A stretch of 64,000 nucleotides of DNA, from the NCBI GenBank assembly GCA_037441565.1, contig JBBIRW010000006.1, positions 71,441 through 135,440 of the forward strand, written 5' to 3'. Under the pieces are notes generated by a model, which was not told where the DNA came from, did not search any database, and worked only from the letters and a program-made list of their open reading frames with translations. The stretch comes from Deltaproteobacteria bacterium. Its GTDB lineage: Bacteria > Desulfobacterota > JBBIRW01. A program made the translations under genes and the position numbers. This document shows positions 40,777 through 57,235 of the stretch, piece after piece (positions within the stretch are counted from its first letter, which is position 1; every line of letters starts with the position of its first letter).

Positions 40777-42501
40777 TTATTTTGGTAGATATCTGTCTCC
40801 AGGAACTATCTGTTCATATTTTCTTTCGATAATCTTGATTTCACCTGATTCTCTGTCCCTGACACTGTTTACAAACTTGAGCCAGTTGAAATCATCCCTT
40901 TCTGGATAATCAAGTCTTGTTTGAAATCCTGGCCATCTTGTTTCTTTTCTGTAAAGAAGGTGTTCAACAAGTACTTCAGCAACATCGATCCTATCTATAA
41001 CTTCATGGGCATGCATCAACTCGTGGTAATCCCTTGCAACAAGGAAATAAATCTGTCCTCTCATTCTTCTTAAATGTTTCCTTGCATAGAGAAGGCGTTC
41101 TTCATTAAGTTCATAAAATACATGGACACCTCCGGCATATTCATCCATGATCTTCTGAAGTCTCTCTTCCATTTGCTCGGGAAAAACACCATCTCTTAGT
41201 TTTTCATACCTGTGAATGGGTGCAAAAACCCTTTGTTCTTCCTGTGATATCTGTTCTTCATCAATGATTCCGAAGGATGAGGAGTATGCATATTTACCTG
41301 CTGACCTTGCTGCAATGATACCCTCTGCCCAGCATCCACTTATGAACTTATAGGGAGCACCACCTGCAACATCACCTGCAGCCCAGAGACCTTCGAGCGT
41401 TGTTTCTCTCTGTGTTGTTATCCAGTATCCTGACTGGCAGTGACCCCCAACTATGTATGGTTCTGTGCCGCATATTTCAACGGGTTCTTCAGAGGGATCA
41501 AATCGATTTGAAGCCCAGTAAAGCACAAGATCGGGATACATATTGAGATAAGATGCCTTCAGATCACGAACCTTTTCAGTAGGTATACCCCTTGTATCCA
41601 TGAAGCACGGTCCTCTGCCCTCCTTTATTTCCTGAACAGGACCATATACCCTTATACATGTTGGAGCACCATCTCCTCCGAGATGGGCGTACTTTTTTGC
41701 CATGAATCTTTCTCCCTTTGCATTCACCTGTGGTGCGCCGAAGCCAAGTGCAAGTGTTCCTGTTGGGGCAATGAGATCCTTGACCCTTAAGGCAATGAAA
41801 CGCATTTCGAAGGATGTCATTTCCGCACCGGCTCTTATACCCATTGCATAACCTGACCCCGTGTTAAAAGGGCTATACCACATTTTGTGATGGCATGTTC
41901 CATCATTATTCGGTCTGTATATTCCAGCAGCACCACCTGTTGCAATTATTGTTGCCTTTGATCTTATCACATAGAATTTTCCATCCCTCACACCAAAACC
42001 CATAACACCAATTACCCTGTTTCCGTGGAGAATAAAGTTTGTTACATTTATTCTATTAAGCACTGTTGTGCCTGATCTTATTGCTGCACGCGCTATTATC
42101 GGTTTAATATGCTCTCCCTCTATCTCAACATTCCATCTCCCCCTCCTCATGTATCTCCCATTCTTATCCTTTTTGATGGGGAGGCCCCATTTTTCGACTC
42201 TGTGAACAGCGTTGTTTATTTCCTCTGCCATTGAAAGGATAAGATCTTCCCTCACAAGCCCCATCGCGTCGAATCGAACATATTTCAGGAAGCTTTCAGG
42301 TGTTTCTCCAGGATGGAGATAAACATTTATTGCATTCATCCCGGCTGCAAGGCATCCGCTTCTCTTTATATGAGCCTTCTCAATTATCATGACCCTGAGA
42401 TCGGGATATCTCGTTTTAGCCTCAACAGCTGCCATACAACCTGCAGTTCCACCTCCGATTATTAAAATATCTGTTTCGAGGTATTCTCTTCTTAATTTCA
42501 T
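40777..42501 (-). CDS. aprA: Adenylylsulfate reductase alpha subunit-like flavoprotein
   Basis: IIGGGTAGC, RSGCLAAG, ATGGAAG, YLNMYP, KFISG, RLQKIMDEYAGG, RKETRWPG. Confidence 0.88.
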   Translation of the reverse strand: MKLRREYLETDILIIGGGTAGCMAAVEAKTRYPDLRVMIIEKAHIKRSGCLAAGMNAINVYLHPGETPESFLKYVRFDAMGLVREDLILSMAEEINNAVHRVEKWGLPIKKDKNGRYMRRGRWNVEIEGEHIKPIIARAAIRSGTTVLNRINVTNFILHGNRVIGVMGFGVRDGKFYVIRSKATIIATGGAAGIYRPNNDGTCHHKMWYSPFNTGSGYAMGIRAGAEMTSFEMRFIALRVKDLIAPTGTLALGFGAPQVNAKGERFMAKKYAHLGGDGAPTCIRVYGPVQEIKEGRGPCFMDTRGIPTEKVRDLKASYLNMYPDLVLYWASNRFDPSEEPVEICGTEPYIVGGHCQSGYWITTQRETTLEGLWAAGDVAGGAPYKFISGCWAEGIIAARSAGKYAYSSSFGIIDEEQISQEEQRVFAPIHRYEKLRDGVFPEQMEERLQKIMDEYAGGVHVFYELNEERLLYARKHLRRMRGQIYFLVARDYHELMHAHEVIDRIDVAEVLVEHLLYRKETRWPGFQTRLDYPERDDFNWLKFVNSVRDRESGEIKIIERKYEQIVPGDRYLPK

Positions 42502-42515
42502 CTAACCCTCCGTGA

Positions 42516-42980
42516 TTAGTCTTCTATAATCTGAATGGGACATGGCCTTAAATTAATGAGATCATCAACAACGGATTTGTGGATAATTCTCGAAAGTAAA
42601 GAACCCCTCTTTTTTGTGAGGATACAGAGATCAATGCTATATTTTTTTATAAATCTGATCGATTCAGAAACAAATTCTCCCTTTTCAAGATATATTTCAC
42701 AGGGTATTGAAAATCTCGTTGCCTTCTCTTTTATCTCCTGAAGCCTCCTGTATGCAGACTGTCTGTAGTCTTTCATGATAGCCTGTGTTAACTGCTCACT
42801 TGGTTTGCCACCGAGAAATCCTATGTCGGTTAATTTTTGAAGGATTGATTCCGGTATCTTGCTGTCAAGTATAAATAGAACAAAAAGTGATGCACATTCT
42901 TTCCTGGCTAAATCCATAGCGAAATCTTCTGCCTTCGGAGAATCTGATGCAGTTGAAAGAATTAGCATTATCCTTTTCAT
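42516..42980 (-). CDS. Universal stress protein
   Basis: MKRIML N-terminus, USP size, C-terminal PCPIQII. Confidence 0.7.
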   Translation of the reverse strand: MKRIMLILSTASDSPKAEDFAMDLARKECASLFVLFILDSKIPESILQKLTDIGFLGGKPSEQLTQAIMKDYRQSAYRRLQEIKEKATRFSIPCEIYLEKGEFVSESIRFIKKYSIDLCILTKKRGSLLSRIIHKSVVDDLINLRPCPIQIIED

Positions 42981-42982
42981 AT

Positions 42983-44413
42983 TTAATTAACCTGTAGACC
43001 CAGTAAAGGCCAGTAAATTTTTGCTGCGAGGTAAATTATTGCAAGTGCCATTATATTCATCAGAAAGCCCAACCTTGCCATATCGGAGATCCTTAGTAAT
43101 CCCGATGAATAAACAATTGCATTTGCTGGCGTTCCAACGGGAAGCATAAAAGCGAGCCCTGCTGAGAGCGTTATTAAAAGCGTAGCAATTCTTACATCAA
43201 AACCAAAAAAGGTGAAAAGGTTTATTCCAATGGGCAAAAGAACAGCGACAACGGATGCATTACTCATTGCTTCTGTGAGAAGCATGGAAGTAGCGATGAG
43301 AAATATTAAGATGGTATGAGGCGATGAAATCCAGTGTTTTACACTATTTTGAGTTAACCATGAAGCTGCACCGGTGGTTTCGAGTGCCTTTCCGAGACAG
43401 ATTGCTCCACCGTACATTAAAATTACACCCCAGTTGACATACTCCTCAAGATCTTTCCATCTGATCAATTTAAATATAAAAAGTGATATAGATGCGATAA
43501 ACGAAATATTTGCAAGACCAATTTCATGTCCATATGTTGACCATGCAATTACAGTCAGGAGAAGGATGAGCAAAATAAATTTTTCATCCATGCCCATCCT
43601 TCCAATCTGTTTGATTTTTTCTTCAATGACTCTCTTCATATCATTTATGCTAACACCTTCATAATTTGCGGATTTAAATATTAATACAAGAGCTATAATG
43701 CTTAAAGAAGCAACAGCTGGAAATGAGTAAGTTATCCATTCAAAAAATCCTATTTTTACTCCGCTCATCTCATAAAGTATTCCGATGGCAAGTGGTGTTC
43801 TCGCTCCCCCGAGAAATGTTGCAATGCCACCAATAATGCAACCCCATGATAAGGAGAGCATCAGATTTCTTGAATATTTTCTATTCATTAATGTTGGGTT
43901 GCAGGATTTTGCTAATTCCATTACAGTTGGAAACATGAAAGCTGCAACTGCATGCTCCGTGATAAAAAATGACATGATAGCGGAGATTATGAAAATGCTT
44001 ATAAGTAATCTTCTTGGTGATGTGGCAAATCTGTTTAGAACAAGAAGTGAAATCCTTGTGCTTATTCCTGATTTCATAACAGAAGCTCCAAGTATAAATG
44101 CGCCGAGTATAAAAAAGACTGCCTCATTGCCAAATAGCGAATACGCCTTTTTCGTATCCATTATCCCGAGGAGGGGGATAAGTGTTATAGCAAGAAGACC
44201 TGTTACTGCAGGCGGTAACAATGTAAAGACCCAGAGCGGAACGCATAATGCAAAAACGGCAAGAACCTTTTTCCCTTCAGGAGTTAAGCCGGTTGGCTGA
44301 GGAAGCTGAAGTATGTAGAGAAAAATCGCCGCTATAACTGCGAAAGCTAAATACCGTGAAAACCTGCTGAGTATAACAATAAGTATGGGCCTTTTATCAA
44401 TTACATATTCCAT
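42983..44413 (-). CDS. DASS/SLC13 anion symporter (sulfate candidate)
   Basis: Multi-TM; IGGIATFLGGART, TEAMSNAS, FMLPVGTPANA. Confidence 0.85.
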   Translation of the reverse strand: MEYVIDKRPILIVILSRFSRYLAFAVIAAIFLYILQLPQPTGLTPEGKKVLAVFALCVPLWVFTLLPPAVTGLLAITLIPLLGIMDTKKAYSLFGNEAVFFILGAFILGASVMKSGISTRISLLVLNRFATSPRRLLISIFIISAIMSFFITEHAVAAFMFPTVMELAKSCNPTLMNRKYSRNLMLSLSWGCIIGGIATFLGGARTPLAIGILYEMSGVKIGFFEWITYSFPAVASLSIIALVLIFKSANYEGVSINDMKRVIEEKIKQIGRMGMDEKFILLILLLTVIAWSTYGHEIGLANISFIASISLFIFKLIRWKDLEEYVNWGVILMYGGAICLGKALETTGAASWLTQNSVKHWISSPHTILIFLIATSMLLTEAMSNASVVAVLLPIGINLFTFFGFDVRIATLLITLSAGLAFMLPVGTPANAIVYSSGLLRISDMARLGFLMNIMALAIIYLAAKIYWPLLGLQVN

Positions 44414-44420
44414 AGTGAAA

Positions 44421-45641
44421 TTAATCCTCGGAGATTTTCTTCACCCTCAAAAATCTTCTAAGATTTGAAATACTTTTCTGGATTTTTATTCCAAAAGAGG
44501 ATTTCGAAAGATTATTTATTATATCAAAGAGGGCTGCGCTTTCTCCTGAAAAGAATCTTCCCTCTATAGGTGTTGCAATGATACTTACTTCTTTTATCCA
44601 GTTCATATTTAGTTTATTTTTCCTAACCCTTTTATAAAGATGGATGTATACCGGGATGAGATCTTCTGGCTTGATCTCCTTGAATGGAGTGATAAAACTA
44701 TCAAAATAATTAAAGATGGGAAGGATAGGTATTATACCCCTTTTTGTAAGATAGTCTATCGCCTGAATGGTTGATTCAACAGATTCGAGACCGACAAAGA
44801 TATTTGTTGAGACTGCGCCGGAAGGAAAAGCAGTTGTTGCATACTCAAGGGCTTCAAGATACCTTTCCCTTCCTATTATTGCGGATCTGAGGGGGAGCAG
44901 AAGTGAAAAAACATCGGGATCAAAGACAAACATATTATATCTTATAGAATCCACTCCAATAGCATAACTCCAATCTATCCACTCATTTATCTTTGGTGGA
45001 AATGCGTCAACAGAGATCATGAGGCCAAAATTTTTTCTTATAGATCTTATATATGGCTGAAGGATAAATATCCCCCTGTCTTCTGAATCAACATAACCCA
45101 TTGAGAGATGAACTATCTCAATCCTTTTTTCCTTAAGACAGGTTTCTATGGTTTCCATTATTTCATCAAGGGGCTTTATTGATCTCTTCAGTTCACCCTT
45201 TAGCATCATCTCCTCGCACTGAATGCATTCCATATGGTTAAAGGAAAGCTTGCATCTTCCCATGGGGAAGATTGTGAGAAGATTTCCATGGAAGGAGCAT
45301 ATTTCACCGATAAGCGTTCCCCATCGCGTTCTTTTAAAATAAAAGTCAGGGAACTGCGAGATCTGGACCGGAATCTGGATTCCATCTTTTATGAGAAAGT
45401 ATCTGTCCTCTTTTTTCTCCAGTAGATAAGGAGATGAGGATAAAAAGGTATTATAGAGCGGGGCTGCTACAGGGGTGCTGTCATTAATTATTATATCAAG
45501 GGAATTGATCAATCCATCAGCGATAGCTTCATTTCTTATTGATCCGTTTTCGATAACTGAAGGGTGAATGTGAACCCCGCTTATCAGAAGATCGAGTTTC
45601 AGATATCCTGGATTTAAACGCAGTTCCTCTAAATTTTTCAT
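44421..45641 (-). CDS. Radical SAM-like protein with non-canonical Cx8Cx2C motif
   Basis: CKLSFNHMECIQC; IFVGLES barrel segment. Confidence 0.65.
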   Translation of the reverse strand: MKNLEELRLNPGYLKLDLLISGVHIHPSVIENGSIRNEAIADGLINSLDIIINDSTPVAAPLYNTFLSSSPYLLEKKEDRYFLIKDGIQIPVQISQFPDFYFKRTRWGTLIGEICSFHGNLLTIFPMGRCKLSFNHMECIQCEEMMLKGELKRSIKPLDEIMETIETCLKEKRIEIVHLSMGYVDSEDRGIFILQPYIRSIRKNFGLMISVDAFPPKINEWIDWSYAIGVDSIRYNMFVFDPDVFSLLLPLRSAIIGRERYLEALEYATTAFPSGAVSTNIFVGLESVESTIQAIDYLTKRGIIPILPIFNYFDSFITPFKEIKPEDLIPVYIHLYKRVRKNKLNMNWIKEVSIIATPIEGRFFSGESAALFDIINNLSKSSFGIKIQKSISNLRRFLRVKKISED

Positions 45642-45655
45642 CCCTTACTCCACGA

Positions 45656-45904
45656 TTAACTGCTTGATTTTCTTATAACTATCTGCCAGTCCGTTTCGTT
45701 TATCTGGCTGACATCTAAAATTTCGTGCCCTTCCATCTCCATACTCCTTGGAACATTCTGGGTTGCAGGAATATGGTCAACTATAACCTTGAGGATTGTG
45801 CCAGGTTCCATCTCCTCAAGGGCAAGTTTTGATTTAACAAAAGTATAAGGACACACTTCACCTTTAAGATCTAATTCCCTATCCGCAACTATTTCCTTTT
45901 TCAT
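45656..45904 (-). CDS. tusA: TusA-family sulfurtransferase
   Basis: LDLKGEVCPYT. Confidence 0.88.
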   Translation of the reverse strand: MKKEIVADRELDLKGEVCPYTFVKSKLALEEMEPGTILKVIVDHIPATQNVPRSMEMEGHEILDVSQINETDWQIVIRKSSS

Positions 45905-46972
45905 AGTTTTTATCCTCCTTTAAAAGGATTTCTTCAATCCTTATTTCTTTCAATATCCTTCCGATGTCATCCTGTTGGGGCAAGAATGGATAGTTTCTGA
46001 AGGGTTTGCCAGGCCTTGTGTGGGCAAAAGGTCTGTTGCATGCAAGTTCTCCTGATAAATCAGGGCAACCTGATGTCATAAATGGTTTCCCTGTTAGAAT
46101 CAAGTCATGAATTATTTGAGGATCTATGTTTATTGAAGATATTCTTCCCTTGTTATCAAATCTGATGTCTTTCTCCGATAAAATATGATTTTTCTCTACC
46201 ATGTATCTTATAAGTTGAATCCTTCTGTATCTCTTCATTGAAGGTGTTCTTCTCTTCTCAAGCACAGTTCCCTTTTCAGGTGTGAAACTGAAGAGATGAC
46301 ACATAATTTTATTTCTTTTAAGGAAAAAGAAGATATCCACAAGTTCCTTATCCGTTTCGCCAAGGCCAACGACGATATGGCAGCTTACCTTCTCATCTCC
46401 AAAAATCTCAACACCATCAATCAGCGTTTCCACATACCTTTCCCACCGCAGTGAGGCTTTTACACCACTTCCCCTTCGTTTCTCAAAGACCCTCTTTGAT
46501 GGCGCATCAAGACCAACACCGAGGATATCGAATCCATTTTCTTTAATAGTGATCAACTTATCCTTATTGATACACATGGGGGAAATGAGCGCAGAGAGTG
46601 GAATTGATGTTATCTTTCTTAACTTTCTTCCAATCTCTAAGAGATCCTTATATGCATATGGATGGTTTATCATGGATATACAAATCCTTTTTATTTTTGA
46701 TTCATAACGAATGATTCTTCTCAATATCTCATCAAAAGGATAGAGTGGCCAGTCTACCCTGATAAAGGTTTTTTCACCAAAGTTTCCAGATCGTGAAAAG
46801 GAAAGGCCGCAATATGCACAACTTCCATAGCATCCTTCTTCATATGAGAGGAGCAGGTTAAGGCATCGTGGATATGCATCTCTAAAAAATCTGCCACCCA
46901 TCAGTTTCAGCATCATAACGCCTGCCAGCGATGTCCTTATATAAAGGGAAGAGATTTTATTTTCCATCTTCA
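45879..46972 (-). CDS. lipS2: Radical SAM lipoyl synthase, LipS2-type
   Basis: CYGSCAYC; C-terminal TSGCPD...CNRP; adjacent to the ligase; start approximate. Confidence 0.75.
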
Positions 46973-48102
46973 TTTCCCATTTCGAACTCTTCAAATACGG
47001 ATTGATCGATAAAGCATGATGAAGGATAGTAGTTGTTTAAGGATAGAAGATGATCTCCTGCCTCAATGATTATGGATGCAAGTGTTTCCGGATCAATGCC
47101 TAGTATCCATCCGTTTTTATCGTATTCCTCACTAATTGTTCTAAGTAAACCCTCTTTTGTGAATTCTTTTCCTACAATATTTTCTTCAATACCCTTTAGT
47201 GTTGATGGATTTGAAAAGAAGTCTCCATATATTTTTACCGATGTAATCAATCCATTATGGATTTTTATTGATACACGAACAAGGCCTGCATCTGTCTTCT
47301 TAATGAATTCCTTCTTTTCTGGTTCATGGTCTCCACTGAATATCCAGATGGGGTTGGCGTATTTTCTCTTCTCAAGGATTTTTACTTTTCTGATTTCTGA
47401 ATAATTAAGTGGGCGAGAGATAAACTTAATACCAAGATTTTTTTCAAAGCCTCTTTTTATGTATTCCCTTACATGTTTTGTTGATACATTGTAGCCAAGC
47501 TCTCTGCGAACCGTTGTTAATCTTTCATTGAGTGCAACAATGCTTCTTTCTGATAGCTTCTCCTTTGGAAGTTTGAGGAGTTTCAGCATAAGTGATATAT
47601 CGAAATCAACAAGCAGGCTTGCATGAAATAGCCAGGAATCCATCTCGTTTGCATATATACCAAGGCCCGCTATCTTCCTCCCATTTACAGTAAGGTCATT
47701 CTTAATCCGGAAGGCTGATCCGATACCTAAAGATTTTAATCCTTCAGATATGCATTTGCTGAAGTGAATAAAGGCTTCCCTCGGATTTTTTATATTTTTA
47801 AAATTATCGCCACGCATGACAAAGGCAATGCCCAGTTGATCTTCCCCCATTAATATTGTTCCACCACCTGTGGGTCTCCTGCTTATTTCAAAACCCATCC
47901 TTCTGCATTCCTCTATGTTTATCTCCCTGTAGACATCTTGAAACGAGCCTGCAAGAACACAGTTTGATCTGTATGTGTAAAGCCTGAGGGTTGGAGGCTC
48001 AGGATTAGATGGGCTGCTGTAATAGCCCATCAGGAATTCATCTACAGCAAGACCATATGATGCACTTACAGCATCCTCTTCTATATACCTTCCTGCTATC
48101 AA
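46957..48102 (-). CDS. Lipoate--protein ligase with C-terminal accessory domain
   Basis: LAVDE, RRPTGGGTI, NDL, RKIAG, HASLL, IYGDFF. Confidence 0.9.
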   Translation of the reverse strand: MIAGRYIEEDAVSASYGLAVDEFLMGYYSSPSNPEPPTLRLYTYRSNCVLAGSFQDVYREINIEECRRMGFEISRRPTGGGTILMGEDQLGIAFVMRGDNFKNIKNPREAFIHFSKCISEGLKSLGIGSAFRIKNDLTVNGRKIAGLGIYANEMDSWLFHASLLVDFDISLMLKLLKLPKEKLSERSIVALNERLTTVRRELGYNVSTKHVREYIKRGFEKNLGIKFISRPLNYSEIRKVKILEKRKYANPIWIFSGDHEPEKKEFIKKTDAGLVRVSIKIHNGLITSVKIYGDFFSNPSTLKGIEENIVGKEFTKEGLLRTISEEYDKNGWILGIDPETLASIIIEAGDHLLSLNNYYPSSCFIDQSVFEEFEMGNEDGK

Positions 48103-48198: not shown

Positions 48199-49104
48199 TC
48201 AAAGGCTCAATCCATTGGGGAATAACCCGCAGCAGTATTCCCTGACACTAACCTTGAACCCTTTTTCTTTTAGATAGGATCCTGTTCCCTCTGCTGGATA
48301 AGCGATACCATCAAGACCTGTATCAATTGCAGCAAGATCAATCTTCAGTTTGTCCGGTCCATAAGGTCTGGCGCATCCGAGAAATATGGGTCTCTTTGGT
48401 ATAAGACTTCGCGCTTCATAAAAAATGTTTTGGATTTCGTTGATATCAGGCGGTTTTATTCCGAACATGGGCGTTCCCTGGATAGGTGTTATAACCACAA
48501 GCACCAGTGATGAGATGGGATATCGGGAGATGATTTCAAGCGCTTTATGCTCCCCTATTATCCTTCCATAATGAAGTCCAATCACAATATGTGGTGTTAC
48601 ATTCAGCCCTTCTTCGATAAGATTTATCAACGATGATTCAAAATCCCTCACTGTCGCCCAAAGGTGATAAATCTTTCTTATAGTTTCATCAGAACCAATT
48701 ATATCTATCATAACCCCATCAACACCTATATCGGAAAGCATCCTCGCATATTCTTTCCCCACAAGACCGGTATGCAGGAGTATCTTAACATTCAGTTCAT
48801 CTTTCACCCTTTTTATCTCTTCATAGAATTCCCATATACTAACTTCCCCGCTTTCATTTGAACCTCCGGATAGAAGAAAACCCCTTGTTCCTTCAAGTGA
48901 TTTTTTTTTGCAAAAATCGAAAAGCTCATCCTTTTTTACACTTTTCATGTATGATAGTATTTTTCCTCTACAGTGATCACAGTTAAGTGCACATTTTTTT
49001 CCTGTTAGACTTATTGGAATGAATTGATCGGGATTGGAAGGTGAAAATTCCTCTGTTTCATATCTTTTTATTCCGGGAATAAAGATACTGAATTCCTTTG
49101 CCAT
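48199..49104 (-). CDS. lipS1: Radical SAM lipoyl synthase, LipS1-type
   Basis: CALNCDHC; LGCARP and YCC motifs. Confidence 0.75.
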   Translation of the reverse strand: MAKEFSIFIPGIKRYETEEFSPSNPDQFIPISLTGKKCALNCDHCRGKILSYMKSVKKDELFDFCKKKSLEGTRGFLLSGGSNESGEVSIWEFYEEIKRVKDELNVKILLHTGLVGKEYARMLSDIGVDGVMIDIIGSDETIRKIYHLWATVRDFESSLINLIEEGLNVTPHIVIGLHYGRIIGEHKALEIISRYPISSLVLVVITPIQGTPMFGIKPPDINEIQNIFYEARSLIPKRPIFLGCARPYGPDKLKIDLAAIDTGLDGIAYPAEGTGSYLKEKGFKVSVREYCCGLFPNGLSL

Positions 49105-49553
49105 TATTCTTCAGGTAGAAGTCCCTTTTCTCTGTATTCCTTTATTTCTAATTCCAGCCATGCCTTTACTTCATCTTCACCATGGACAAGATCCATAAGG
49201 TCTTCCTCAAGGTTTTCCGGTTCTATAATAACAAACCATCCCTCACCATATGGATCTGTATTGACAAGTGATGGTTGTTCAATCACCCTGTTGTTTGTTA
49301 TAAGTATTGTTCCACTAACAGGTGCTTTCAGGGGTCCAACATATTTTCCAGCTTCGAGTGATCCGAACGCCTTCCCCTTTTTCACCTTTTTCCCTGGTGG
49401 CATGAGCTTTATGTATGCAACATTTCCAGCAGCCTTCTGACCAAACATATCAAGTCCTACCCTAACATTGCCGTTTTCAATTCTTGCCCATAAGTGATCC
49501 TTCCTATCATAGTAAAGATCCCCGGGTAAAAAGAATCCCTCCACCTCTGCCAT
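49104..49553 (-). CDS. GcvH/LbpA-like lipoyl carrier protein
   Basis: HLWA, VRVG, LEAGKYVGP lipoyl-Lys, APVSG, NTDPYGEGW; no Cys. Confidence 0.88.
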   Translation of the reverse strand: MAEVEGFFLPGDLYYDRKDHLWARIENGNVRVGLDMFGQKAAGNVAYIKLMPPGKKVKKGKAFGSLEAGKYVGPLKAPVSGTILITNNRVIEQPSLVNTDPYGEGWFVIIEPENLEEDLMDLVHGEDEVKAWLELEIKEYREKGLLPEE

Positions 49554-49586: not shown

Positions 49587-49835
49587 TTAATCGGTCTTTT
49601 TTATGTAGATCCTGAAATGGCTGCCTTCTTCTATTACCTCGTAAGGATATTTTTTCTTTTCACAGAAACCGGGGATGGTTTCCTTAGCTGCAGGAGGATG
49701 ATCGCATATCACCTCCAGCACCTCTCCCGGATGCATGGTTTTCAACTTCTCCCTTGTTTCTATAAGGGTATAGGGACATATTTTACCCCTTATGTCGATC
49801 CTCTCGGAGATATTGCTCTTATCTATCGGTTCCAT
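49587..49835 (-). CDS. tusA: TusA-family sulfurtransferase
   Basis: IDIRGKICPYT. Confidence 0.88.
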   Translation of the reverse strand: MEPIDKSNISERIDIRGKICPYTLIETREKLKTMHPGEVLEVICDHPPAAKETIPGFCEKKKYPYEVIEEGSHFRIYIKKTD

Positions 49836-49844
49836 TCTAACCCC

Positions 49845-50117
49845 TTAAGCAAAATTTATTATCTTTTCGTGTTTTAATATTATATTAACCAATTCATGAT
49901 AATCTATAATCCTTGCCCTATCTTTTATTTTTTCCTTTATTCCTCTTCTAACAACATCATGCTCAATAGCATAAACCTCTTTGAACTTTCCGTAAGCGTC
50001 TGGATCCAGATAAACTCCATCCTGTATCAGGACAATCACTGCTTCGCTGTCAAGGGATGCCATCTTGAGTGCTATTTCACCTTTCGGCTTGTCTATAAGA
50101 TAAAGTGCCATACTCAC
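49845..50117 (-). CDS. DsrH/TusB-like protein (set 2)
   Basis: LIQDGVY, DVVRRG, IIDYHELV. Confidence 0.75.
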   Translation of the reverse strand: MSMALYLIDKPKGEIALKMASLDSEAVIVLIQDGVYLDPDAYGKFKEVYAIEHDVVRRGIKEKIKDRARIIDYHELVNIILKHEKIINFA

Positions 50118-50138
50118 CTCCTCTGAAACTTCATATCC

Positions 50139-50489
50139 TTAAAAATCTATTGTGTGATTTGCATCAAGTAAGAGTCGGAGAGCCTCTTTCCTGCTTATAA
50201 CCCTCACAAAAGGGGAAAGCTCTTTGCTGTTTATCCCTCTTTCCTTCAGGGATTCCTCTTCCGCATATATACTGGAATTTATTCCTGTAAGCGTCTGGAT
50301 ATATTTTGCAGAATCCTTTCTGTCAACATTATTTAATGCATAATAAACACCATCACCTAAAAGTAGCACATCAACGGTGTGCTCATCGATACCGGATGTA
50401 ACACCAACTGCTGCCCTTAGCCCCTCGGTGTAATATATGGAACCAAAGGGTGGATGGGTTATCATGACAACAACCTTTTTTTCAGCCAT
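50139..50489 (-). CDS. DsrF/TusC-like protein (set 2)
   Basis: HPPFGS, EGLR, GDGVY, ESLKERG. Confidence 0.78.
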   Translation of the reverse strand: MAEKKVVVMITHPPFGSIYYTEGLRAAVGVTSGIDEHTVDVLLLGDGVYYALNNVDRKDSAKYIQTLTGINSSIYAEEESLKERGINSKELSPFVRVISRKEALRLLLDANHTIDF

Positions 50490-50500
50490 TTCCTACCTCC

Positions 50501-50854
50501 TTAAAGTGTAATAATCCTGTCCACTTCGCCGATTATCTCAGCGAAGTCAGGAAGCCCTCCGACCTTGACCTGGTCAATATAATCCTTTCCATTCTCAAGA
50601 CCACGGGCATTTACACATATTCCACATGCTATTATCTTACCCCCCTTCTTCAGGATATCAGCCCAGCAATCCTTGGGTAGCGTTTCCATATCAGGAAACT
50701 TCTGATACCTTATGGGATTATAAACGCCATCGAGATAGTAAAAAATAAGCACATCATGTTTCATCTCAAGTGCAGCGTTTGCTATATGATATGCCGTTTC
50801 CCAGTTTTCAAACTGATATGGCCCAAGTGTAAGTAGAATTCCGATCTTTGCCAT
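50501..50854 (-). CDS. DsrE/TusD-like protein (set 2)
   Basis: GPY, YLDGVY, ACGICVNARG, GGLPDF. Confidence 0.8.
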   Translation of the reverse strand: MAKIGILLTLGPYQFENWETAYHIANAALEMKHDVLIFYYLDGVYNPIRYQKFPDMETLPKDCWADILKKGGKIIACGICVNARGLENGKDYIDQVKVGGLPDFAEIIGEVDRIITL

Positions 50855-50932: not shown

Positions 50933-51193
50933 CTACCAGCATATTACCCTGTCATGGGAAAAAATAAGGTCAACAATCTGATCATAATCCAGGGATTTGT
51001 CAATATTAAGTCCTCTTGCCTGAAGATCATCCCTGCAGAAGAAAACCCTGAGGGGGTAATTCATCTCCTTCCTCAACGAATATACCCCATCATGGATAAA
51101 AAGAAGCGAGACCTCGTGTTTCTCTGATTGTTCAAGAGCAACCTTCAGTGCGGTTTCATCATCCGGGTTTCTCAAAATATGAAGTATTTTCAT
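50933..51193 (-). CDS. DsrH/TusB-like protein (set 1)
   Basis: MKILHI, HDGVY, DDLQARG, DYDQIV, VICW. Confidence 0.75.
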   Translation of the reverse strand: MKILHILRNPDDETALKVALEQSEKHEVSLLFIHDGVYSLRKEMNYPLRVFFCRDDLQARGLNIDKSLDYDQIVDLIFSHDRVICW

Positions 51194-51196
51194 TGC

Positions 51197-51541
51197 TTAA
51201 TAGACGATCAATATATCGCTTTTTGCAATCTCCTCAATTATCTCTTTCCTTTTCTTTAGCTCTACATTGTAAGGGATATCATTTATAAGTCTCTTTTTCA
51301 CGTCCTCCTGATCGGCAATTATCATACCTTTCAGATGCGGTAGTGTTTCAAGATGCTTTGAAAGATCATTCATATTGATTATTTCTGGCTTTAATCTGGT
51401 TATGGCATATGTGCCATTTTCCAGGAAGATTACCTGAATTTTATCGTCTGATAGTGTTAAACCTACACCCATTCGCAAGGCTTCAGAAACCCTTGTTGTA
51501 TTAAGTGGAAGACTTCTTATAAGAACAGTTATTGTTCTCAT
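51197..51541 (-). CDS. DsrF-like protein (set 1)
   Basis: EALRMGVGL, FLENGTY. Confidence 0.7.
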   Translation of the reverse strand: MRTITVLIRSLPLNTTRVSEALRMGVGLTLSDDKIQVIFLENGTYAITRLKPEIINMNDLSKHLETLPHLKGMIIADQEDVKKRLINDIPYNVELKKRKEIIEEIAKSDILIVY

Positions 51542-51548
51542 CCCTCAC

Positions 51549-51857
51549 TCAATTAAAAGAAAGAAATCTGTCAGCAGTGTGTGCAATCTGCGCAAGATCC
51601 CACTGACTTCCCCAGACAACCTCATCAATTTTGTTTATACCTCTTTCAATTGCATTGTGGGCACAGACAACGATACGGACACCCTTTGATGAAAGTTTGA
51701 TGAAGTTTTCAAATTTCAGATTATATACACCATCAGCCATAAGAAATATTTCCACATGCATATTTTTTCTAAGTGCAGCTTCAGATAATTTAATAACGGT
51801 TCTCACATCCTCACTCTCAGATGATGTTGTGAGCAGTATACCAAGTTTCTTTCTCAT
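51549..51857 (-). CDS. DsrE-like protein (set 1)
   Basis: FLMADGVY, VCAHNAIERG, GSQWDL. Confidence 0.78.
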   Translation of the reverse strand: MRKKLGILLTTSSESEDVRTVIKLSEAALRKNMHVEIFLMADGVYNLKFENFIKLSSKGVRIVVCAHNAIERGINKIDEVVWGSQWDLAQIAHTADRFLSFN

Positions 51858-52270
51858 ACGATCTCAATTTCCTCCTCTTCAAATTCCCCATCCTCATCTT
51901 GAAGAACCCATGATCTGGCTGTTTTGAATCTTCCCTCGTTAATGGAAACAATTATGTAGGAATAGAGGGGCCAGGCCCTCTTTCTATCAAAGATTGAAGG
52001 AAATGGGGGATTATCAGGGTGGGAATGAAAAAAGCCGATTATCTCCTTTCCGCAAGCCCTTATCTTCTCTTCAGTTCTAAGGATCTCCCTCGGGTCAATT
52101 TCATACCTATCCCTGGCCCTTTCCCTATTTATGTTTTCTGTTGGATATACCATGGATACCCTTTTTTTATTCTTTTCTATCTTCCCCACAAGGATACCGC
52201 AGACTTCAAATGGATATCCTTGTTCGGATAATTTTATTATTTCCTCCCAGACCTCCTTTTCTATCTCCAT
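51854..52270 (-). CDS. JAB/MPN (M67) metallopeptidase, Mec-like
   Basis: YPFEVCGIL, HSHPD...PS.FD JAMM motif. Confidence 0.9.
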   Translation of the reverse strand: MEIEKEVWEEIIKLSEQGYPFEVCGILVGKIEKNKKRVSMVYPTENINRERARDRYEIDPREILRTEEKIRACGKEIIGFFHSHPDNPPFPSIFDRKRAWPLYSYIIVSINEGRFKTARSWVLQDEDGEFEEEEIEIV

Positions 52271-52274
52271 CCCT

Positions 52275-53216
52275 TTAATAAATCTCCCAGAGCCTGCTAC
52301 TCAGATATTTATCGCCACCATCTGGGAATATTGTTACAATAACACCTTCGTCCAGATCTTTTATTATCTGCAGCACACCAGCAAGTGCAGCACCTGATGA
52401 AATCCCTACCAGAAGTCCTTCCTCCCTTGCAAGTCTCTTCACACACTCATAAGCCTCCTCTGTTTTTACCTTTATTATGCCATCAAGGAATTTTTCGTCG
52501 AATATACCTGGAATAATTGCAGTCTCCATATGTTTGAGGCCTTCTATTCCATGAAGGGAGGTGTCAGGCTCTACACCTATAACTTTTATCTTTTTGTTGA
52601 ATTCCTTAAGTCTTCTTCCCGTTCCCATTATCGTCCCGCCTGTTCCCACACCGGCGACAAAGTGCGTTATCCTTCCTTCAGTTTGAAGGATAATCTCAGG
52701 GCCTGTTGATTCGTAATGTGCAAGTGGATTGCACGGGTTGTTATATTGATCGGGCATGAAATATTTATCAGGGTTTTCCATATATCTCCTGTGGGCTTCC
52801 TTTATTGCCCCATCGGTTCCTTCAAGTGGATCTGTATATATAATTTCTGCACCATATGCCTTAAGGATCTTTTTTCGTTCCTCACTCGCATTCTTCGGCA
52901 TCACAAGTTCGACCCTGTATCCCTTTATAGCTGCGATCATCGCATATGCAATTCCTGTATTGCCGGAGGTCGAATCAAGTATTATCTTATCCTTTGTTAA
53001 CTTTCCTGTTCTTTCACCATCAAGGATCATCTTTAGTGCAGGCCTGTCTTTTACCGATCCTCCGGGATTGAACCATTCAAGCTTTGCATAAACCTCAACC
53101 TTTTTAAAATCTCTTGTTATGTTGTTTAATTTTATAAGCGGTGTGTTTCCAACAAGATCCAGTATGTTTCTTGTGCGAAAGTTTTTATCAGGCTCAACAT
53201 TAAGTCCTTTTTTCAT
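52275..53216 (-). CDS. cysM: Cysteine synthase (CysM/CysK family)
   Basis: GNTPL, NPGGSVKDR, TSGNTG, GVGTGGT, FPDGGDKYLS. Confidence 0.88.
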   Translation of the reverse strand: MKKGLNVEPDKNFRTRNILDLVGNTPLIKLNNITRDFKKVEVYAKLEWFNPGGSVKDRPALKMILDGERTGKLTKDKIILDSTSGNTGIAYAMIAAIKGYRVELVMPKNASEERKKILKAYGAEIIYTDPLEGTDGAIKEAHRRYMENPDKYFMPDQYNNPCNPLAHYESTGPEIILQTEGRITHFVAGVGTGGTIMGTGRRLKEFNKKIKVIGVEPDTSLHGIEGLKHMETAIIPGIFDEKFLDGIIKVKTEEAYECVKRLAREEGLLVGISSGAALAGVLQIIKDLDEGVIVTIFPDGGDKYLSSRLWEIY

Positions 53217-53240: not shown

Positions 53241-54050
53241 TTAATGTCTGATATTGCAGAATTCATCATAATCTATAAGCTGCCTGATGGTCGGATTATC
53301 TCCACACAGAGGACATTGAGGGTTTTTCTTTAACTTTAATTCACGAAAAGACATCTTCAGTGCATCGAAAATGAGCAACCTTCCAGTTAATGTCTTCCCT
53401 ATTCCAAGGAGGATCTTTATTGTTTCAACTGCCTGTATTGTCCCGATAATTCCCGGAAGCACACCGAGAACGCCTGCCTCCTGACAGCTTGGAACCATAC
53501 CGGGCGGCGGGGGTTCTGGATAGAGGCATCTGTAACAGGGCCCATTCTTTGGATCAAAAACCGTTGCCTGACCTTCAAATCTGAATATGCTTCCGTGAAT
53601 ATTTACCTTTCCTGAAAGCACACAGGCATCATTGACAAGATATCTTGTAGGAAAGTTGTCACATCCATCAACAATAACATCATAATCCTTTATTATTCCA
53701 AAAATGTTTTCTGAGGTAAGTTTTTCTTTATAGGAGATAACCTTTATATCGGGATTGAGCGCAGTTAAAGTCTCCTTTGCAGATTCAACCTTTGGCTTGC
53801 CTATATCGTTTGTTGAATGAAGGATCTGTCTCTGAAGGTTTGAGATATCAACGATATCAAAATCAACAATACCTATTGTTCCTATACCAGCTGCAGCGAG
53901 GTAGTATGCAGCCGGTGAACCAAGTCCACCTGCTCCTATAAGGAGGACCCTGGATGAAAGAAGTTTTTTCTGACCCTTCCCTCCAACTTCCGGAAGGATG
54001 ATATGGCGGCTGTATCTTTTTATCTGGTCTTCAGTAAATGACATCTTCAA
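53241..54050 (-). CDS. MoeB/ThiF adenylyltransferase (no rhodanese domain)
   Basis: RYSRH, GAGGLG, SNLQRQ, CYRC, PSCQEAG, CPLC. Confidence 0.92.
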   Translation of the reverse strand: MKMSFTEDQIKRYSRHIILPEVGGKGQKKLLSSRVLLIGAGGLGSPAAYYLAAAGIGTIGIVDFDIVDISNLQRQILHSTNDIGKPKVESAKETLTALNPDIKVISYKEKLTSENIFGIIKDYDVIVDGCDNFPTRYLVNDACVLSGKVNIHGSIFRFEGQATVFDPKNGPCYRCLYPEPPPPGMVPSCQEAGVLGVLPGIIGTIQAVETIKILLGIGKTLTGRLLIFDALKMSFRELKLKKNPQCPLCGDNPTIRQLIDYDEFCNIRH

Positions 54051-54067: not shown

Positions 54068-54310
54068 CTATTCAATTATGTTCAATTCAACAGGTTCTAC
54101 TTTTATCTCTTTTTCTTTGAGAAAATTTATTGCCTTTTCCAGTTCCTCCCTTTCCCCCTCCATTTCAAGAGCAACAATACCAATCTCATCTGAAACACTT
54201 GCCTGTCTTATGTTTGTTATAACATCAAAATTTTTGCCCACCATCCATATGATGGGTTCCTTTATAAGCTTCTGGGGAAATGTTAACCATACTTTAATCT
54301 TTTCCCTCAT
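54068..54310 (-). CDS. Stand-alone NIL-domain protein
   Basis: LTFP...EPII...TNIRQA pattern, 80 aa. Confidence 0.75.
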   Translation of the reverse strand: MREKIKVWLTFPQKLIKEPIIWMVGKNFDVITNIRQASVSDEIGIVALEMEGEREELEKAINFLKEKEIKVEPVELNIIE

Positions 54311-54319
54311 AGTTACCCC

Positions 54320-54601
54320 TCAAATAACTCCTCCTGCTATTGCAGGAACAATGGAGATTTCATCTCCATCATTTAGTTTCGTTGTTATATTATCGAGAAA
54401 TCTGATATCCTCCTGATTTACATAGATGTTTACAAATTTTTTAACTTCACCATTTTCATCACAGATCCTTTCCTTCATCCCTGGAAATTCCCTGTCCAGA
54501 TATTCGATGACCTCCGCCACTGTACTCCCTTCAGCCTTTACCTCCTCCAGACCCTTTGTTAGTCTTCTTAAAGGTGTTGGAATCCTCACTGTTACTCCCA
54601 T
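54320..54601 (-). CDS. MoaD/CysO-like ubiquitin-fold sulfur carrier with GG-VI C-terminus
   Basis: VRIPTPLR, FVNIYVN, VPAIAGG followed by VI. Confidence 0.9.
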   Translation of the reverse strand: MGVTVRIPTPLRRLTKGLEEVKAEGSTVAEVIEYLDREFPGMKERICDENGEVKKFVNIYVNQEDIRFLDNITTKLNDGDEISIVPAIAGGVI

Positions 54602-54629: not shown

Positions 54630-55877
54630 TTATTTCTTTGAATGTTTTTTTCTTTCCTTTAGAAACTGATCAAATTCCGAAAGCTTGGCATTTATAATCA
54701 CAGGATCGGGAATCCTTCCATAAACGGCTTCCTGTGTCTTTAAACCATTTCCAGTTATACATAGCACAATGGATTCATCACGCGGGATTATGCGTTTATC
54801 TATCAATTTCTTTGCAACACCAACAGTAACTCCACCGGCAGTTTCTGCAAATATACCTTCTGTTTTTGCGAGTATTTTAATTCCTTCAATAATTTCCTCA
54901 TCGGATACATCTTCACCATATCCACCACTTTCCTTCATGGTCTTGATTGCATAATATCCGTCTGCAGGATTTCCTATAGCAAGCGATTTTGCAATTGTTG
55001 ATGGTTTAACAGGTGTGAATATATCCTTCCCCTGTTTTATAGCAGTCACTATTGGTGCACACCCTGAAGCCTGTGCGCCGTATATCTTTGCTTCATTCTT
55101 TTTTATAAAACCGAGCTTTTCAAATTCAATAAATGCTTTCCAGATCTTTGTTATGAGAGAACCTCCAGCCATAGGAACTACTATGTGCCTTGGTGTCCTC
55201 CAGCCAAGCTGCTCCATGATTTCGTATCCGAAGGCCTTGGACCCCTCTGCATAATAAGGTCTGATGTTGATATTTACAAACGCCCAGCCGTATTTGCCAG
55301 CTATTTCGCTGCAGAGTCTGTTTACCTCATCATAAGTACCCCTGATACCTATAAGGCAGGCACCGTAAATGCTCGTTCCGATTATTTTCCCCTGCTCCAG
55401 ATCCGCTGGAATAAATATATAGCTTTCCATTCCGCTTTGAGCAGCCTGTGCGGCAACAGAGTTGGCGAGATTTCCCGTTGATGCGCATGCAACAATTTGA
55501 AAACCGAACTCCCTTGCCTTTGATATAGCAACAGAAACCACTCGATCTTTAAATGAAAGGGTTGGATGATTTACTGCATCATTTTTAATGTAAAGTTCCT
55601 TTACTCCAAGCACCTTTGCCAGATTGTTTGCTCTGATCAGCGGAGTAAATCCAACATCCACACCCACAGTTGGTGGAAAATCAAGGGGGAGCAGTTCCCT
55701 GTATCTCCACATGTTTGCAGGACGCCTTACAATGGTCTCCCGTGTAAGCGACTTTTTTATCTCATCATATTTGTAGACAACCTCGAGAGGACCGAAACAG
55801 AATTCGCATACATGTAGCGGTTCTTTGGGATATTCCCTTCCACATTCCCTGCATCTTAGACCTTTTACAAAGCTCAT
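54630..55877 (-). CDS. Threonine synthase-like PLP enzyme with N-terminal Zn ribbon
   Basis: CRECG...CEFC; PTLSFKDR; ASTGN; ITGNGLK. Confidence 0.85.
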   Translation of the reverse strand: MSFVKGLRCRECGREYPKEPLHVCEFCFGPLEVVYKYDEIKKSLTRETIVRRPANMWRYRELLPLDFPPTVGVDVGFTPLIRANNLAKVLGVKELYIKNDAVNHPTLSFKDRVVSVAISKAREFGFQIVACASTGNLANSVAAQAAQSGMESYIFIPADLEQGKIIGTSIYGACLIGIRGTYDEVNRLCSEIAGKYGWAFVNINIRPYYAEGSKAFGYEIMEQLGWRTPRHIVVPMAGGSLITKIWKAFIEFEKLGFIKKNEAKIYGAQASGCAPIVTAIKQGKDIFTPVKPSTIAKSLAIGNPADGYYAIKTMKESGGYGEDVSDEEIIEGIKILAKTEGIFAETAGGVTVGVAKKLIDKRIIPRDESIVLCITGNGLKTQEAVYGRIPDPVIINAKLSEFDQFLKERKKHSKK

Positions 55878-55917: not shown

Positions 55918-56745
55918 TTAATTTCCAGAGGCACATAACATCTCTCCTGCAGTTCTAATTGGTTTTCTGATTGAGGCATGAGGTCCACAGACAGGACAAC
56001 TGCTATTTCTTTTTATTTTAATTTCGCTAAAAGAAAGATAGAAGGCATCTATGAAAAGTATTCTATCAATAAGAAAATCCCCTATCGAAAGGATTACCTT
56101 TATAACCTCGGCTGCCTGTATGAGTCCTGCTATTCCTGCAACCGGTCCCAGTATTCCCGCTTCCTGACATGTTGGGACAGCTCCTTCAGGAGGTGGTGAT
56201 GGGATTAAACAGCGATAACAGGCACTTCTTCCCGGAAGAACCGTCATAACATGACCAAATAGCCTGACTACAGCGGCTATTACAAGAGGTTTGCCTGATA
56301 GGATAGATGCATCATTGACAAGCAGTTTTGTCGGGATATTATCAGAGCCTTCAGCTATTACATCATATCCATCTATGATATCCATTATATTTTTTTCATC
56401 GATCCTGAGATCGTAAGTCTCAACTTTTACATCAGGGTTGAGGGTGGTGATCTTTTCACAGGCGGAAAGTGTCTTTGGTTTTCCTATGTCCTTTGTAAAA
56501 TGGATTATCTGACGATGTAGATTTGATAACTCAACCCTGTCTCCATCCACAATCCCTATCCTGCCTACCCCGGCTGCCGCAAGGTAAAGTGCGGCAGGTG
56601 AACCGAGTCCTCCTGCTCCGACAATCAGCACGCTGGATGCGAGAAGCTTCTTCTGCCCCTTCCCTCCAAGTTCTGGAAGGATGATATGCCTGCTATATCT
56701 TCTTATCCTTTCTTCGGTAAGTTCATTAAGCATAGATTGGGCCAT
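55918..56745 (-). CDS. Second MoeB/ThiF adenylyltransferase
   Basis: RYSRH, GAGGLG, SNLHRQ, CYRC, PTCQEAG, CPVC; start taken at ATG just after the Rrf2 stop. Confidence 0.9.
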   Translation of the reverse strand: MAQSMLNELTEERIRRYSRHIILPELGGKGQKKLLASSVLIVGAGGLGSPAALYLAAAGVGRIGIVDGDRVELSNLHRQIIHFTKDIGKPKTLSACEKITTLNPDVKVETYDLRIDEKNIMDIIDGYDVIAEGSDNIPTKLLVNDASILSGKPLVIAAVVRLFGHVMTVLPGRSACYRCLIPSPPPEGAVPTCQEAGILGPVAGIAGLIQAAEVIKVILSIGDFLIDRILFIDAFYLSFSEIKIKRNSSCPVCGPHASIRKPIRTAGEMLCASGN

Positions 56746-56746
56746 T

Positions 56747-57235
56747 CTATATAAATTCTGCTTCCCCATTTTTTATTGATTCCAGTCCGAGCTTTTTCCC
56801 CTTCTGACAGAGATCCTTTATGCTTATTGAATCAAAGAATTCACTTATCCGATCCTCAAGCTCCTTCCATATTGGGGTTGTGATACATTTATCGGCGCAA
56901 TTTGTTTTTAGATTACAGTTTGGTCTGATGGAGAACCGGGGAGTCTTCCTGAATTCGTCACAGAATACAAGCCTTATGGGTCCTTCAGTAGCCCTGATTA
57001 TGTCACCGATTGTAATTTTTTCCGGTTCCCTGACAAGAAAATATCCTCCTGACCTCCCCCTTCTGCTCCTCACAATCTCGGCCCTTTTCAATTTCTGGAA
57101 GATCTGTTCAAGATAACGCGGAGGTATCTTCTGCCTTTTAGAGATGTCTTTTATCTGGGCACATTTTCCATCAGCGTAGTATGCAATATCAAAAACAGCC
57201 CTTACCCCGTATCTTATCTTTGTATTAAGCCTCAT
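56747..57235 (-). CDS. Rrf2-family regulator (IscR/CymR-like) with Cys-rich segment
   Basis: RYG, YLEQIF, SRRGRSGGY, C...C...C...C before PIW. Confidence 0.9.
   Translation of the reverse strand: MRLNTKIRYGVRAVFDIAYYADGKCAQIKDISKRQKIPPRYLEQIFQKLKRAEIVRSRRGRSGGYFLVREPEKITIGDIIRATEGPIRLVFCDEFRKTPRFSIRPNCNLKTNCADKCITTPIWKELEDRISEFFDSISIKDLCQKGKKLGLESIKNGEAEFI

Follow-up and report, generated by a model that had tools for sequence, protein, structure and literature searches.

Protein-bound lipoate is known from the 2-oxoacid dehydrogenases, from glycine cleavage and, since 2018, from sHdr sulfur oxidation, in which the lipoyl carrier is LbpA. DsrC acts together with DsrMK(JOP), DsrEFH and TusA in dissimilatory sulfite reduction and in the reverse Dsr pathway, and TusE acts with TusBCD. 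To our knowledge, the described CysO-CysM-Mec-MoeZ and ThiS-type homocysteine systems include no lipoyl carrier, no CCG-domain reductase and no DsrEFH sets. Here we analyzed a 64,000-nucleotide stretch of DNA (the window) from contig JBBIRW010000006.1 of a Deltaproteobacteria bacterium (assembly GCA_037441565.1; 1.87 Mb in 24 contigs, 98.1% complete). An open reading frame (ORF) at 49104..49553 on its minus strand encodes a cysteine-free protein of 149 amino acids that resembles LbpA and the glycine cleavage H protein, GcvH. Our comparisons support the assignment of this protein to the LbpA branch of lipoyl carriers and argue against a working GcvH. We lean toward the reading that the carrier works with a quinone-linked CCG reductase and a persulfide relay for thiocarboxylate-dependent cysteine synthesis, inside a sulfate-assimilation operon.

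The literature searched contained no description of a cysteine-free LbpA branch, of its pairing with a DsrMK-like protein or of its place in cysteine biosynthesis, although subscription journals and supplements may hold one; a term search of Neukirchen 2023 returned no mention of lipoate or GcvH. What emerges is a conserved carrier branch that lacks the LbpA cysteines, is paired with a DsrMK/HdrD-like enzyme, and appears to be wired into thiocarboxylate-dependent cysteine synthesis. If true, this would give a class of bacterial CCG enzymes a concrete disulfide substrate, extend lipoate to sulfur assimilation, and make it possible to tell cleanly which of the two, the LbpA cysteines or the lipoyl arm, is responsible for the sHdr chemistry.

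Sequence features of the carrier and its lipoylation genes

The translation carries the motif EAGKYVGP and not a single cysteine, both as described in the original prediction. It matched the Pfam family GCV_H at 3.4e-32, which indicates an H-protein fold, and a PDB sequence search matched Lys70 of the motif to the lysine that bears the lipoyl group in solved structures of GcvH, including 1onl; this search returned GcvH entries only, and no structure named LbpA. Lys70 was invariant in 24 aligned members of the carrier family. The single lipoyl domain of H-protein fold, a motif of the form ExGK[WY]xGP, an LbpA-type C-terminal extension and a basic patch before the lysine are all features shared with the sHdr LbpAs.

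Although the fold and the position of the lipoyl lysine are those of GcvH, the carrier scored below both curated GcvH equivalog cut-offs (82.9 against 115.85 for TIGR00527, and 109.7 against 117 for NF002270). The genome holds three GCV_H genes, and the two besides the carrier, each encoding 130 amino acids, are ordinary GcvH by these cut-offs (162.2 and 170.6 for one paralog and 136.2 and 155.0 for the other, with TIGR00527 and NF002270, respectively). The surface around the lipoyl site differs as well. The local net charge is +5 in the carrier and 0 in a GcvH paralog of the same genome, compared to +3 to +6 in reference type II LbpAs and 0 to -6 in reference GcvHs. The fourth residue past the lipoyl lysine is Pro in the carrier and Asp in GcvH, and an isoelectric point (pI) of 4.90 was computed for the carrier against 4.41 and 4.05 for the paralogs. 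A basic lipoylation surface together with a pI above 4.5 is given in a 2026 preprint as the set of features that discriminates LbpA for recognition by sLpl(AB).

Genome-wide searches returned no match to GcvP (PF02347) or GcvT (PF01571), for each of which control genomes were positive. The original prediction had noted the lack of gcvP, gcvT and dihydrolipoamide dehydrogenase (Lpd) genes in the window. Profile searches of the window proteins likewise found no GcvP, GcvT, Lpd or sHdr gene, but the statement cannot be extended to Lpd in the genome, as an E1-E2-Lpd cluster and further Lpd-like genes, three Lpd-like genes in all, lie on other contigs.

The neighborhood of the carrier gene was also as originally described, with a TusA gene directly upstream, separated by 33 nt, and lipoylation genes directly downstream. 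The carrier stop abuts the start of a gene for a LipS1-family lipoyl synthase, a radical SAM protein of 301 amino acids (48199..49104; 233.6 bits against an NCBIfam cut-off of 230). It is followed by genes for a divergent fused LplA/LplB-type lipoate-protein ligase of 381 amino acids (46957..48102), which fell below the NCBIfam cut-offs, and for a LipS2-like radical SAM protein of 371 amino acids (45879..46994), whose best match was LipS2 at 211.5 bits with a cut-off of 270. The carrier thus resembles the sHdr LbpAs in having its own sLpl(AB)-LipS1/S2 genes, of which LipS1 passes its cut-off while LipS2 and the ligase are best matches below theirs. Because a canonical LipA and two further LplA/LipB-type genes lie at other places of the genome, this set is private to the carrier. 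Cao 2018 likewise notes, for sHdr organisms, dedicated lipoylation genes in addition to those used for housekeeping.

The position below the equivalog cut-offs, the genome-wide absence of GcvP and GcvT, and a placement outside the GcvH clade (described below) together support the view that the carrier is a lipoyl protein of the LbpA branch and not a working GcvH, as judged by sequence comparison. The GCV_H fold, the naming of its homologs as glycine cleavage H protein and the presence in the genome of a lipoate-requiring 2-oxoacid dehydrogenase E2 could nonetheless be taken to indicate an ordinary GcvH or a lipoyl-relay scaffold of central metabolism. We find this hardly credible, as GcvP and GcvT are missing, two better GcvH copies and canonical LipA and LipB-type genes are present, and the basic lipoylation surface and the clade of the carrier are not those of GcvH.

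In one of the GcvH paralogs (C3:224030-224389; L005:9519-9911, minus strand), the lipoyl lysine is replaced by Asn (ESTNTV), and the protein still lies above the GcvH cut-offs. Its gene on contig C3 adjoins cytochrome c maturation genes.

A carrier family without the LbpA cysteines

A single cysteine-free protein of 149 residues has a chance probability of P ~0.15, and 5 of the 22 window ORFs of 100-200 amino acids lack cysteine. The cysteine-free state of this one carrier is therefore unremarkable alone, and its meaning rests on comparison with homologs. The best 120 homologs were 63-97% identical to the carrier and 140-172 amino acids long, and among them the named sources were metagenome-assembled genomes (MAGs) of Dehalococcoidia or Chloroflexota, Brocadiales and Methylomirabilales. 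Every named homolog of this set was labeled as glycine cleavage H protein, except for one hypothetical protein, so that a widespread annotation would be corrected here. Across MAGs of Chloroflexota, Brocadiales, Methylomirabilales and Desulfobacterota-like bacteria, conservation amounted to 63-75% identity.

Type I sHdr LbpAs are exemplified by those of Hyphomicrobium, Aquifex and Thioalkalivibrio, and type II by those of Sulfobacillus and Alicyclobacillus. According to Cao 2018, both terminal cysteines are conserved in the sHdr LbpAs. This statement, together with the similar motif, had been given in the original prediction, and it was borne out by the best 120 homologs of a type II sHdr LbpA, of which 113 had the N-terminal and 110 the C-terminal cysteine, and only one was free of cysteine. 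A search for type I LbpA references listed, among its best 120 matches, type II-like proteins of Firmicutes only. The best 120 homologs of the carrier gave the opposite picture, with the N-terminal cysteine motif in none, a C-terminal cysteine in 3, and 101 free of cysteine. When proteins were collected by the motif EAGKY[IV]GP, 138 of 184 had no cysteine and none had a cysteine at the LbpA N-terminal column; 21 formed a subgroup in which one cysteine is internal and another is penultimate. In a type II sHdr cluster from Alicyclobacillus tolerans (L024), a gene for a B3-like CCG protein is followed, in this order, by those for EtfB and EtfA, for an EMO-like membrane CCG protein, for a pair of LbpAs, for a ligase and for DsrE proteins, and its LbpAs have the N-terminal cysteine, the C-terminal cysteine and the motif ESGKWVG[SP].

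The original prediction had proposed phylogeny with GcvH and LbpA as a check. A quick IQ-TREE search on 159 rows and 149 columns, with branch support from SH-aLRT only, recovered the carrier family as a 78-row clade (support 98) apart from GcvH and from type II LbpA. The GcvH clade comprised rows encoded beside gcvT or gcvP together with both paralogs from the genome, and six type II LbpA rows formed a clade of their own (support 98), with the carrier outside. The comparison with the tree thereby covers GcvH and type II LbpA. The carrier would have been called into doubt had it grouped with true GcvH in a genome with gcvP and gcvT and no other gcvH; instead, it lies in a separate clade, GcvP and GcvT are absent, and two other GcvHs are present. 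A further group of the tree consisted of 13 ESGKW rows from the window's own phylum. Generic GcvH-pattern scanning of genome contigs gave, among the matches listed, canonical or type II proteins only, at no more than 47% identity, and these were used just as references.

Close family members were sparse: three of the 301 genomes examined from the window's phylum had one, the present genome included, as did 5 of 401 Chloroflexota genomes. Among 151 sampled genomes of the phylum Methylomirabilota, none had a family member at E <= 1e-45.

A second H-protein-like group was noted in the window's phylum (L132, L135 and L137; genomes G069, G033 and G052), with the motif ESGKW[VL]G[KR] and 40-47% identity to the carrier. 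The genes of these proteins adjoin those for HdrB, HdrC and HdrD-like proteins, FAD-linked oxidases and lipoate ligases.

A CCG-domain enzyme as candidate partner

Another genome of the window's phylum (G026) encodes a carrier that is 67% identical to that of the window, in a gene string that is nearly the same and that also holds Sat and AprAB. Compared to the window it has two extra genes. One adjoins TusA and encodes a small sulfite reductase; the other, directly upstream of the carrier, encodes a CCG protein of 643 amino acids in which a membrane part resembling NarI is combined with ferredoxin clusters and a pair of CCG domains. In all, four genomes besides that of the window, belonging to two phyla, had such a DsrMK/HdrD-like CCG gene directly upstream of the carrier gene, namely G026 and three Chloroflexota genomes (G532, G746 and G810). 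A DNA-pattern scan of metagenome contigs yielded 80 loci with 74 family members, 45 of which had at least 1 kb of upstream sequence and were informative. A same-strand CCG gene lay within 700 nt upstream of the carrier in 40 of these 45, and two of the five without one (L173 and L151) were artefacts of the ORF start, as a CCG match exists there. The claim that the carrier has no partners is therefore not supported as worded in the original prediction: GcvP, GcvT and an sHdr operon are indeed absent, but a DsrMK/HdrD-like gene is upstream of it in relatives and has a putative unlinked ortholog in this genome.

This candidate ortholog is a split pair of DsrM-like and DsrK-like proteins encoded on contig C1, the best homolog in the genome of the G026 CCG enzyme (36% and 48% identity; 5.6e-125). 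The best match and the model described next suggest that the C1 pair is the ortholog of the carrier-linked enzyme. Both CCG motifs, CX34CCX35CXXC and CX35CCX36CXXC, were invariant in 24 aligned partners. Complex prediction with the C1 DsrK-like subunit and the carrier gave ipSAE values of 0.62, 0.62 and 0.57, with 0.00 for the best control. Of 157 solved complexes, 116 attain the ipSAE mark, as do 2 of 215 mismatched pairs; these counts are rough here since our own alignments were used. Contact agreement among the runs was at least 77%, and the pLDDT of the partner was at least 88. The predicted interface comprises residues 46-49, 51-52, 55, 62, 64-67 and 72-74 of the carrier, which flank Lys70, and residues 133-146, 171-176 and 367-371 of the CCG subunit, which are next to the CCG cysteines. 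In the model, the lipoyl hairpin thus sits against the CCG loops of the C1 subunit, which supports binding but does not show it.

The window itself encodes, at 12668-14662 on the plus strand, an EMO/EtfD-like membrane protein with a NarI-like part, ferredoxin clusters and two CCG domains. It has the architecture of the carrier-linked enzyme of relatives, but we do not take it for the ortholog of that enzyme, to which it was only 32-34% identical, against 48% for the C1 protein. EtfA (59-958) and an FAD-linked oxidase (1041-2450) are also encoded in the window. The label HdrB for neighborhood genes was dropped, as it cross-matched all CCG proteins.

Like EtfD/EMO, the carrier-linked enzyme combines a membrane part of the cytochrome-b type with ferredoxin-like clusters and CCG domains, and EtfD/EMO are reported as ETF:quinone enzymes (ETF, electron transfer flavoprotein). 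The partner could accordingly be an electron-transfer enzyme of that kind without thiol chemistry, with the carrier dithiol recycled by an NAD-linked Lpd from another locus, along the lines of the published sHdr-LbpA model. The three Lpd-like genes of the genome would suit this, as would the type II sHdr clusters, in which the order is etfBA, an EMO-like membrane CCG gene and, directly downstream of it, lbpA. It seems unlikely to us, as the sulfur-type loci examined had no Etf genes beside the CCG-carrier pair, both CCG motifs are fully conserved, and the model places the lipoyl hairpin on the CCG loops.

Gene company of the carrier in relatives

Upstream sequence of 3 kb or more was available for 29 family loci. 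DsrE or TusA genes were present at 19 of them and genes for 2-oxoacid dehydrogenase E2 or Lpd at 7, while 3 had neither and none had both. The E2/Lpd loci fell into a subclade of 14 rows (support 95), and the carrier of the window was in the remaining 64. In G532 and G746 the gene order was Rrf2, ThiS, ThiF, TusA, (ThiS, CysM), DsrEFH, TusA, DsrM, DsrK, carrier, DsrEFH. The five metagenome loci with ThiF or CysM were those with the carriers nearest to that of the window, at 60-72% identity. The nearest relatives of the carrier were in every case accompanied by TusA, DsrEFH, ThiS, ThiF and CysM. DsrC was absent in five of the six genomes with a sulfur-type carrier (G000, G002, G026, G532 and G810) and present in G746; in the window's genome, a search with PF04358 gave no match, with control genomes positive.

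Cys-free carriers with an upstream CCG gene were seen beside E2, Lpd and a fused ligase/radical-SAM gene at the metagenome loci L154, L161, L206 and L217. The E2/Lpd-linked carrier-CCG pair may be an alternative route for lipoyl re-oxidation.

Comparison with sHdr, DsrC and thiocarboxylate systems

In the company of TusA and DsrE-type proteins and of a CCG-domain redox partner, the carrier is again like the sHdr LbpAs. It is unlike them in that it has neither conserved cysteine, is separate from the type II clade, has no Etf beside it, and belongs to a genome without sHdrA, sHdrB or sHdrC. Its company of ThiS, ThiF and CysM is biosynthetic, not dissimilatory. A ThiS-like carrier, ThiF types, CysM, a JAB protease and a ThrC-like enzyme in one string instead recall the CysO-CysM-Mec-MoeZ and ThiS-type homocysteine systems, and we take the content of the whole string to be protein-thiocarboxylate cysteine synthesis of the CysO-CysM-Mec-MoeZ type plus homocysteine synthesis, joined to sulfate uptake and activation.

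The types of partner are those of the DsrC system, in that a membrane cytochrome-b together with a CCG subunit, heterotrimers resembling DsrEFH, TusA and sulfite reductase surround the carrier. The carrier itself matches GCV_H only and has no relation to DsrC in sequence or fold, and by analogy its redox pair would be the lipoyl dithiol, not two cysteines. The original prediction had inferred that any sulfur chemistry must use the lipoyl dithiol, which could stand in for DsrC. We consider such a substitution plausible by analogy, and the idea fits the DsrMK-like protein, the two DsrEFH sets, TusA, the TusA-fused sulfite reductase and the absence of DsrC in five of six genomes, but G746 has both the carrier and DsrC.

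Proposed function and alternatives

In the mechanism toward which we lean, the carrier would be lipoylated by its own sLpl(AB)-type ligase together with LipS1 and LipS2, and the dithiolane/dithiol arm would be the redox substrate of the DsrMK/HdrD-like enzyme, with its cytochrome-b anchor and an iron-sulfur subunit bearing two complete CCG motifs. The gene for this enzyme would be the adjoining one in most relatives and the one on contig C1 in this genome. The carrier-CCG pair would work with a persulfide relay of TusA and DsrEFH by which, through ThiF, carriers of the ThiS/CysO type are loaded, and the loaded carriers would in turn feed the synthesis of cysteine by CysM and of homocysteine by the ThrC-like enzyme. 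The source of sulfur in this genome would be the sulfate transporter, Sat, AprAB and the TusA-fused sulfite reductase, and the conserved core would consist of the quinone-linked CCG enzyme, the lipoyl carrier, the DsrEFH-TusA relay and the ThiF/ThiS/CysM set.

The chemistry could run in one of three ways. A reduced arm might resolve persulfide or acyl-disulfide intermediates and be re-reduced from quinol; an oxidized arm might turn sulfide into carrier-bound sulfane sulfur, with electrons passed to quinone; or the arm might take sulfur from sulfite reductase as DsrC does. A fuller version of the last, in which the lipoyl dithiol replaces the two cysteines of DsrC in assimilation, would have sulfite reductase place zero-valent sulfur on the dihydrolipoyl arm, in the form of either a cyclic trisulfide or a persulfide. 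From there DsrEFH and TusA would pass it to ThiF-activated ThiS/CysO for cysteine and homocysteine, and the DsrMK-like CCG enzyme would reset the arm against the quinone pool. We regard this version as rather unlikely; if true, sulfate could be assimilated without free sulfide and without cysteine desulfurase.

Several observations weigh against a carrier-CCG pair that acts in cysteine synthesis. The family tree came from a quick search on 149 columns, with type II proteins as its LbpA references. Three of the 45 informative metagenome loci had no upstream CCG gene and only TusA upstream, as in the window, where the CCG gene is outside the operon and the C1 pair is assigned solely by best match and model. 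EtfD/EMO proteins of the same architecture are reported to take electrons from ETF and are not known to reduce a disulfide. The sister E2/Lpd subclade pairs the same type of carrier with a CCG protein and has no sulfur genes, so that sulfur chemistry is not inherent in the pair. ThiF or CysM was present at just 5 of the 16 sulfur-type metagenome loci whose upstream sequence was 4.5 kb or longer, and none of 77 metagenome loci had Sat, Apr, Sir or the transporter.

The last of these counts bears on the possibility that the dihydrolipoyl carrier is the electron donor of AprAB, in place of the Qmo complex, in assimilatory reduction of adenylyl sulfate. AprAB and Sat are part of the carrier gene string here and in G026, AprB is shortened, and no other donor is encoded nearby, all of which would suit such a role. 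AprAB was however found in none of the 77 metagenome loci and none of 3 Chloroflexota carrier loci. As the carrier family is mostly without AprAB, its core role cannot depend on AprAB, and we consider the donor role very improbable.

Dissimilatory sulfur oxidation without sHdr was also weighed. Here sulfane sulfur from TusA/DsrEFH would be oxidized with the lipoyl arm, and AprAB and Sat, run in reverse, would lead to sulfate. The sharing of one operon by TusA, DsrE-type proteins and AprAB-Sat and the terminal-oxidase and multihaem cytochrome genes in the genome are in keeping with this proposal, as is the fact that, in Cao 2018 and Tanabe 2024, LbpA is known from sulfur oxidation only. We judge it quite improbable, as no enzyme that would convert sulfane sulfur to sulfite was found in the genome. 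None of its five CCG-domain loci has the sHdr gene order, no DsrAB was found, tblastn gave no match to an HdrA-like or FlpD protein, and DsrC is absent, as noted above. The sole NIR_SIR protein, encoded on contig C2 at about 300.9-303.2 kb (L020:6895-9249, minus strand), is an assimilatory-type sulfite/nitrite reductase of 784 amino acids with a C-terminal TusA domain. The operon is moreover headed by Rrf2 and is rich in CysM, ThiS, ThiF, a JAB protease and a ThrC-like enzyme, and the same biosynthetic company occurs in Chloroflexota without AprAB or Sat.

Gene organization of the locus

All window genes from 57235 down to 39244 are on the minus strand. The string is headed by a gene for an Rrf2-family regulator (56747..57235), which has the same position in G026, G532 and G746. 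Next come genes for the second of two ThiF-type adenylyltransferases, assigned by profile matches (55918..56769), and for a threonine-synthase-like pyridoxal phosphate enzyme with an N-terminal zinc ribbon (54630..55877), whose inferred function makes it a candidate homocysteine synthase. A ThiS/MoaD/SAMP-type sulfur carrier with the end GG-V-I, a candidate for carrying the thiocarboxylate, is encoded at 54320..54601, a NIL-domain protein at 54068..54310, and the ThiF/MoeB/MoeZ-type adenylyltransferase at 53241..54050. CysM cysteine synthase (52275..53216), which passes TIGR01138, is followed by a JAB/Mec-type metalloprotease (51854..52270).

Two DsrE/DsrF/DsrH-like sets follow, the first at 50933..51857 (51549-51857, 51197-51541 and 50933-51193) and the second at 49845..50854 (50501-50854, 50139-50489 and 49845-50117), in which the E subunit has a Cys within ACGICVNARG. 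Between the second set and the carrier is the gene for the TusA-type sulfur carrier with the CPY motif (49587..49835). Past the carrier and its lipoylation genes are those for a second TusA-type carrier (45656..45904) and for a variant radical-SAM protein of 406 amino acids that is MSMEG_0568-like (44421..45641; NF045502, 125.5 against 125). In G026 the corresponding slot is occupied by an ORF of 331 amino acids with no Pfam match.

The remainder of the string encodes a transporter of the DASS/Na-sulfate symporter family (42983..44413), a universal stress protein family member (42516..42980), the adenylyl-sulfate reductase alpha subunit AprA (40777..42501; 813.6 bits against a cut-off of 557), an AprB-like ferredoxin subunit of 106 amino acids (40443..40763; 73 bits, cut-off 135.65) and the sulfate adenylyltransferase Sat (39244..40446). 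AprB seems to lack the C-terminal part that it usually has, whereas AprA is clearly above its cut-off. A scan for promoters and terminators stayed at the level of shuffled sequence (50 versus 48.6 and 19 versus 14.2, respectively) and did not inform the operon limits.

Elsewhere in the genome, a locus on contig C4 (L017:9528-14243) encodes HdrB-like (302 amino acids) and HdrC-like (146 amino acids) proteins, followed by a split glutamate-synthase-type trio (GATase_2, Glu_synthase with ferredoxin, and GXGXG), with no adjoining lipoyl carrier. The named homologs nearest to the genome's valyl-tRNA synthetase, at 58-60% identity, come from MAGs of Deltaproteobacteria or Thermodesulfobacteriota. 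A Pup ligase and a proteasomal ATPase are encoded on contigs C1 (L019:3958-5379) and C8 (L018:4248-5963), and the valyl-tRNA synthetase of the genome is nearest to those of Desulfobacterota-type MAGs.

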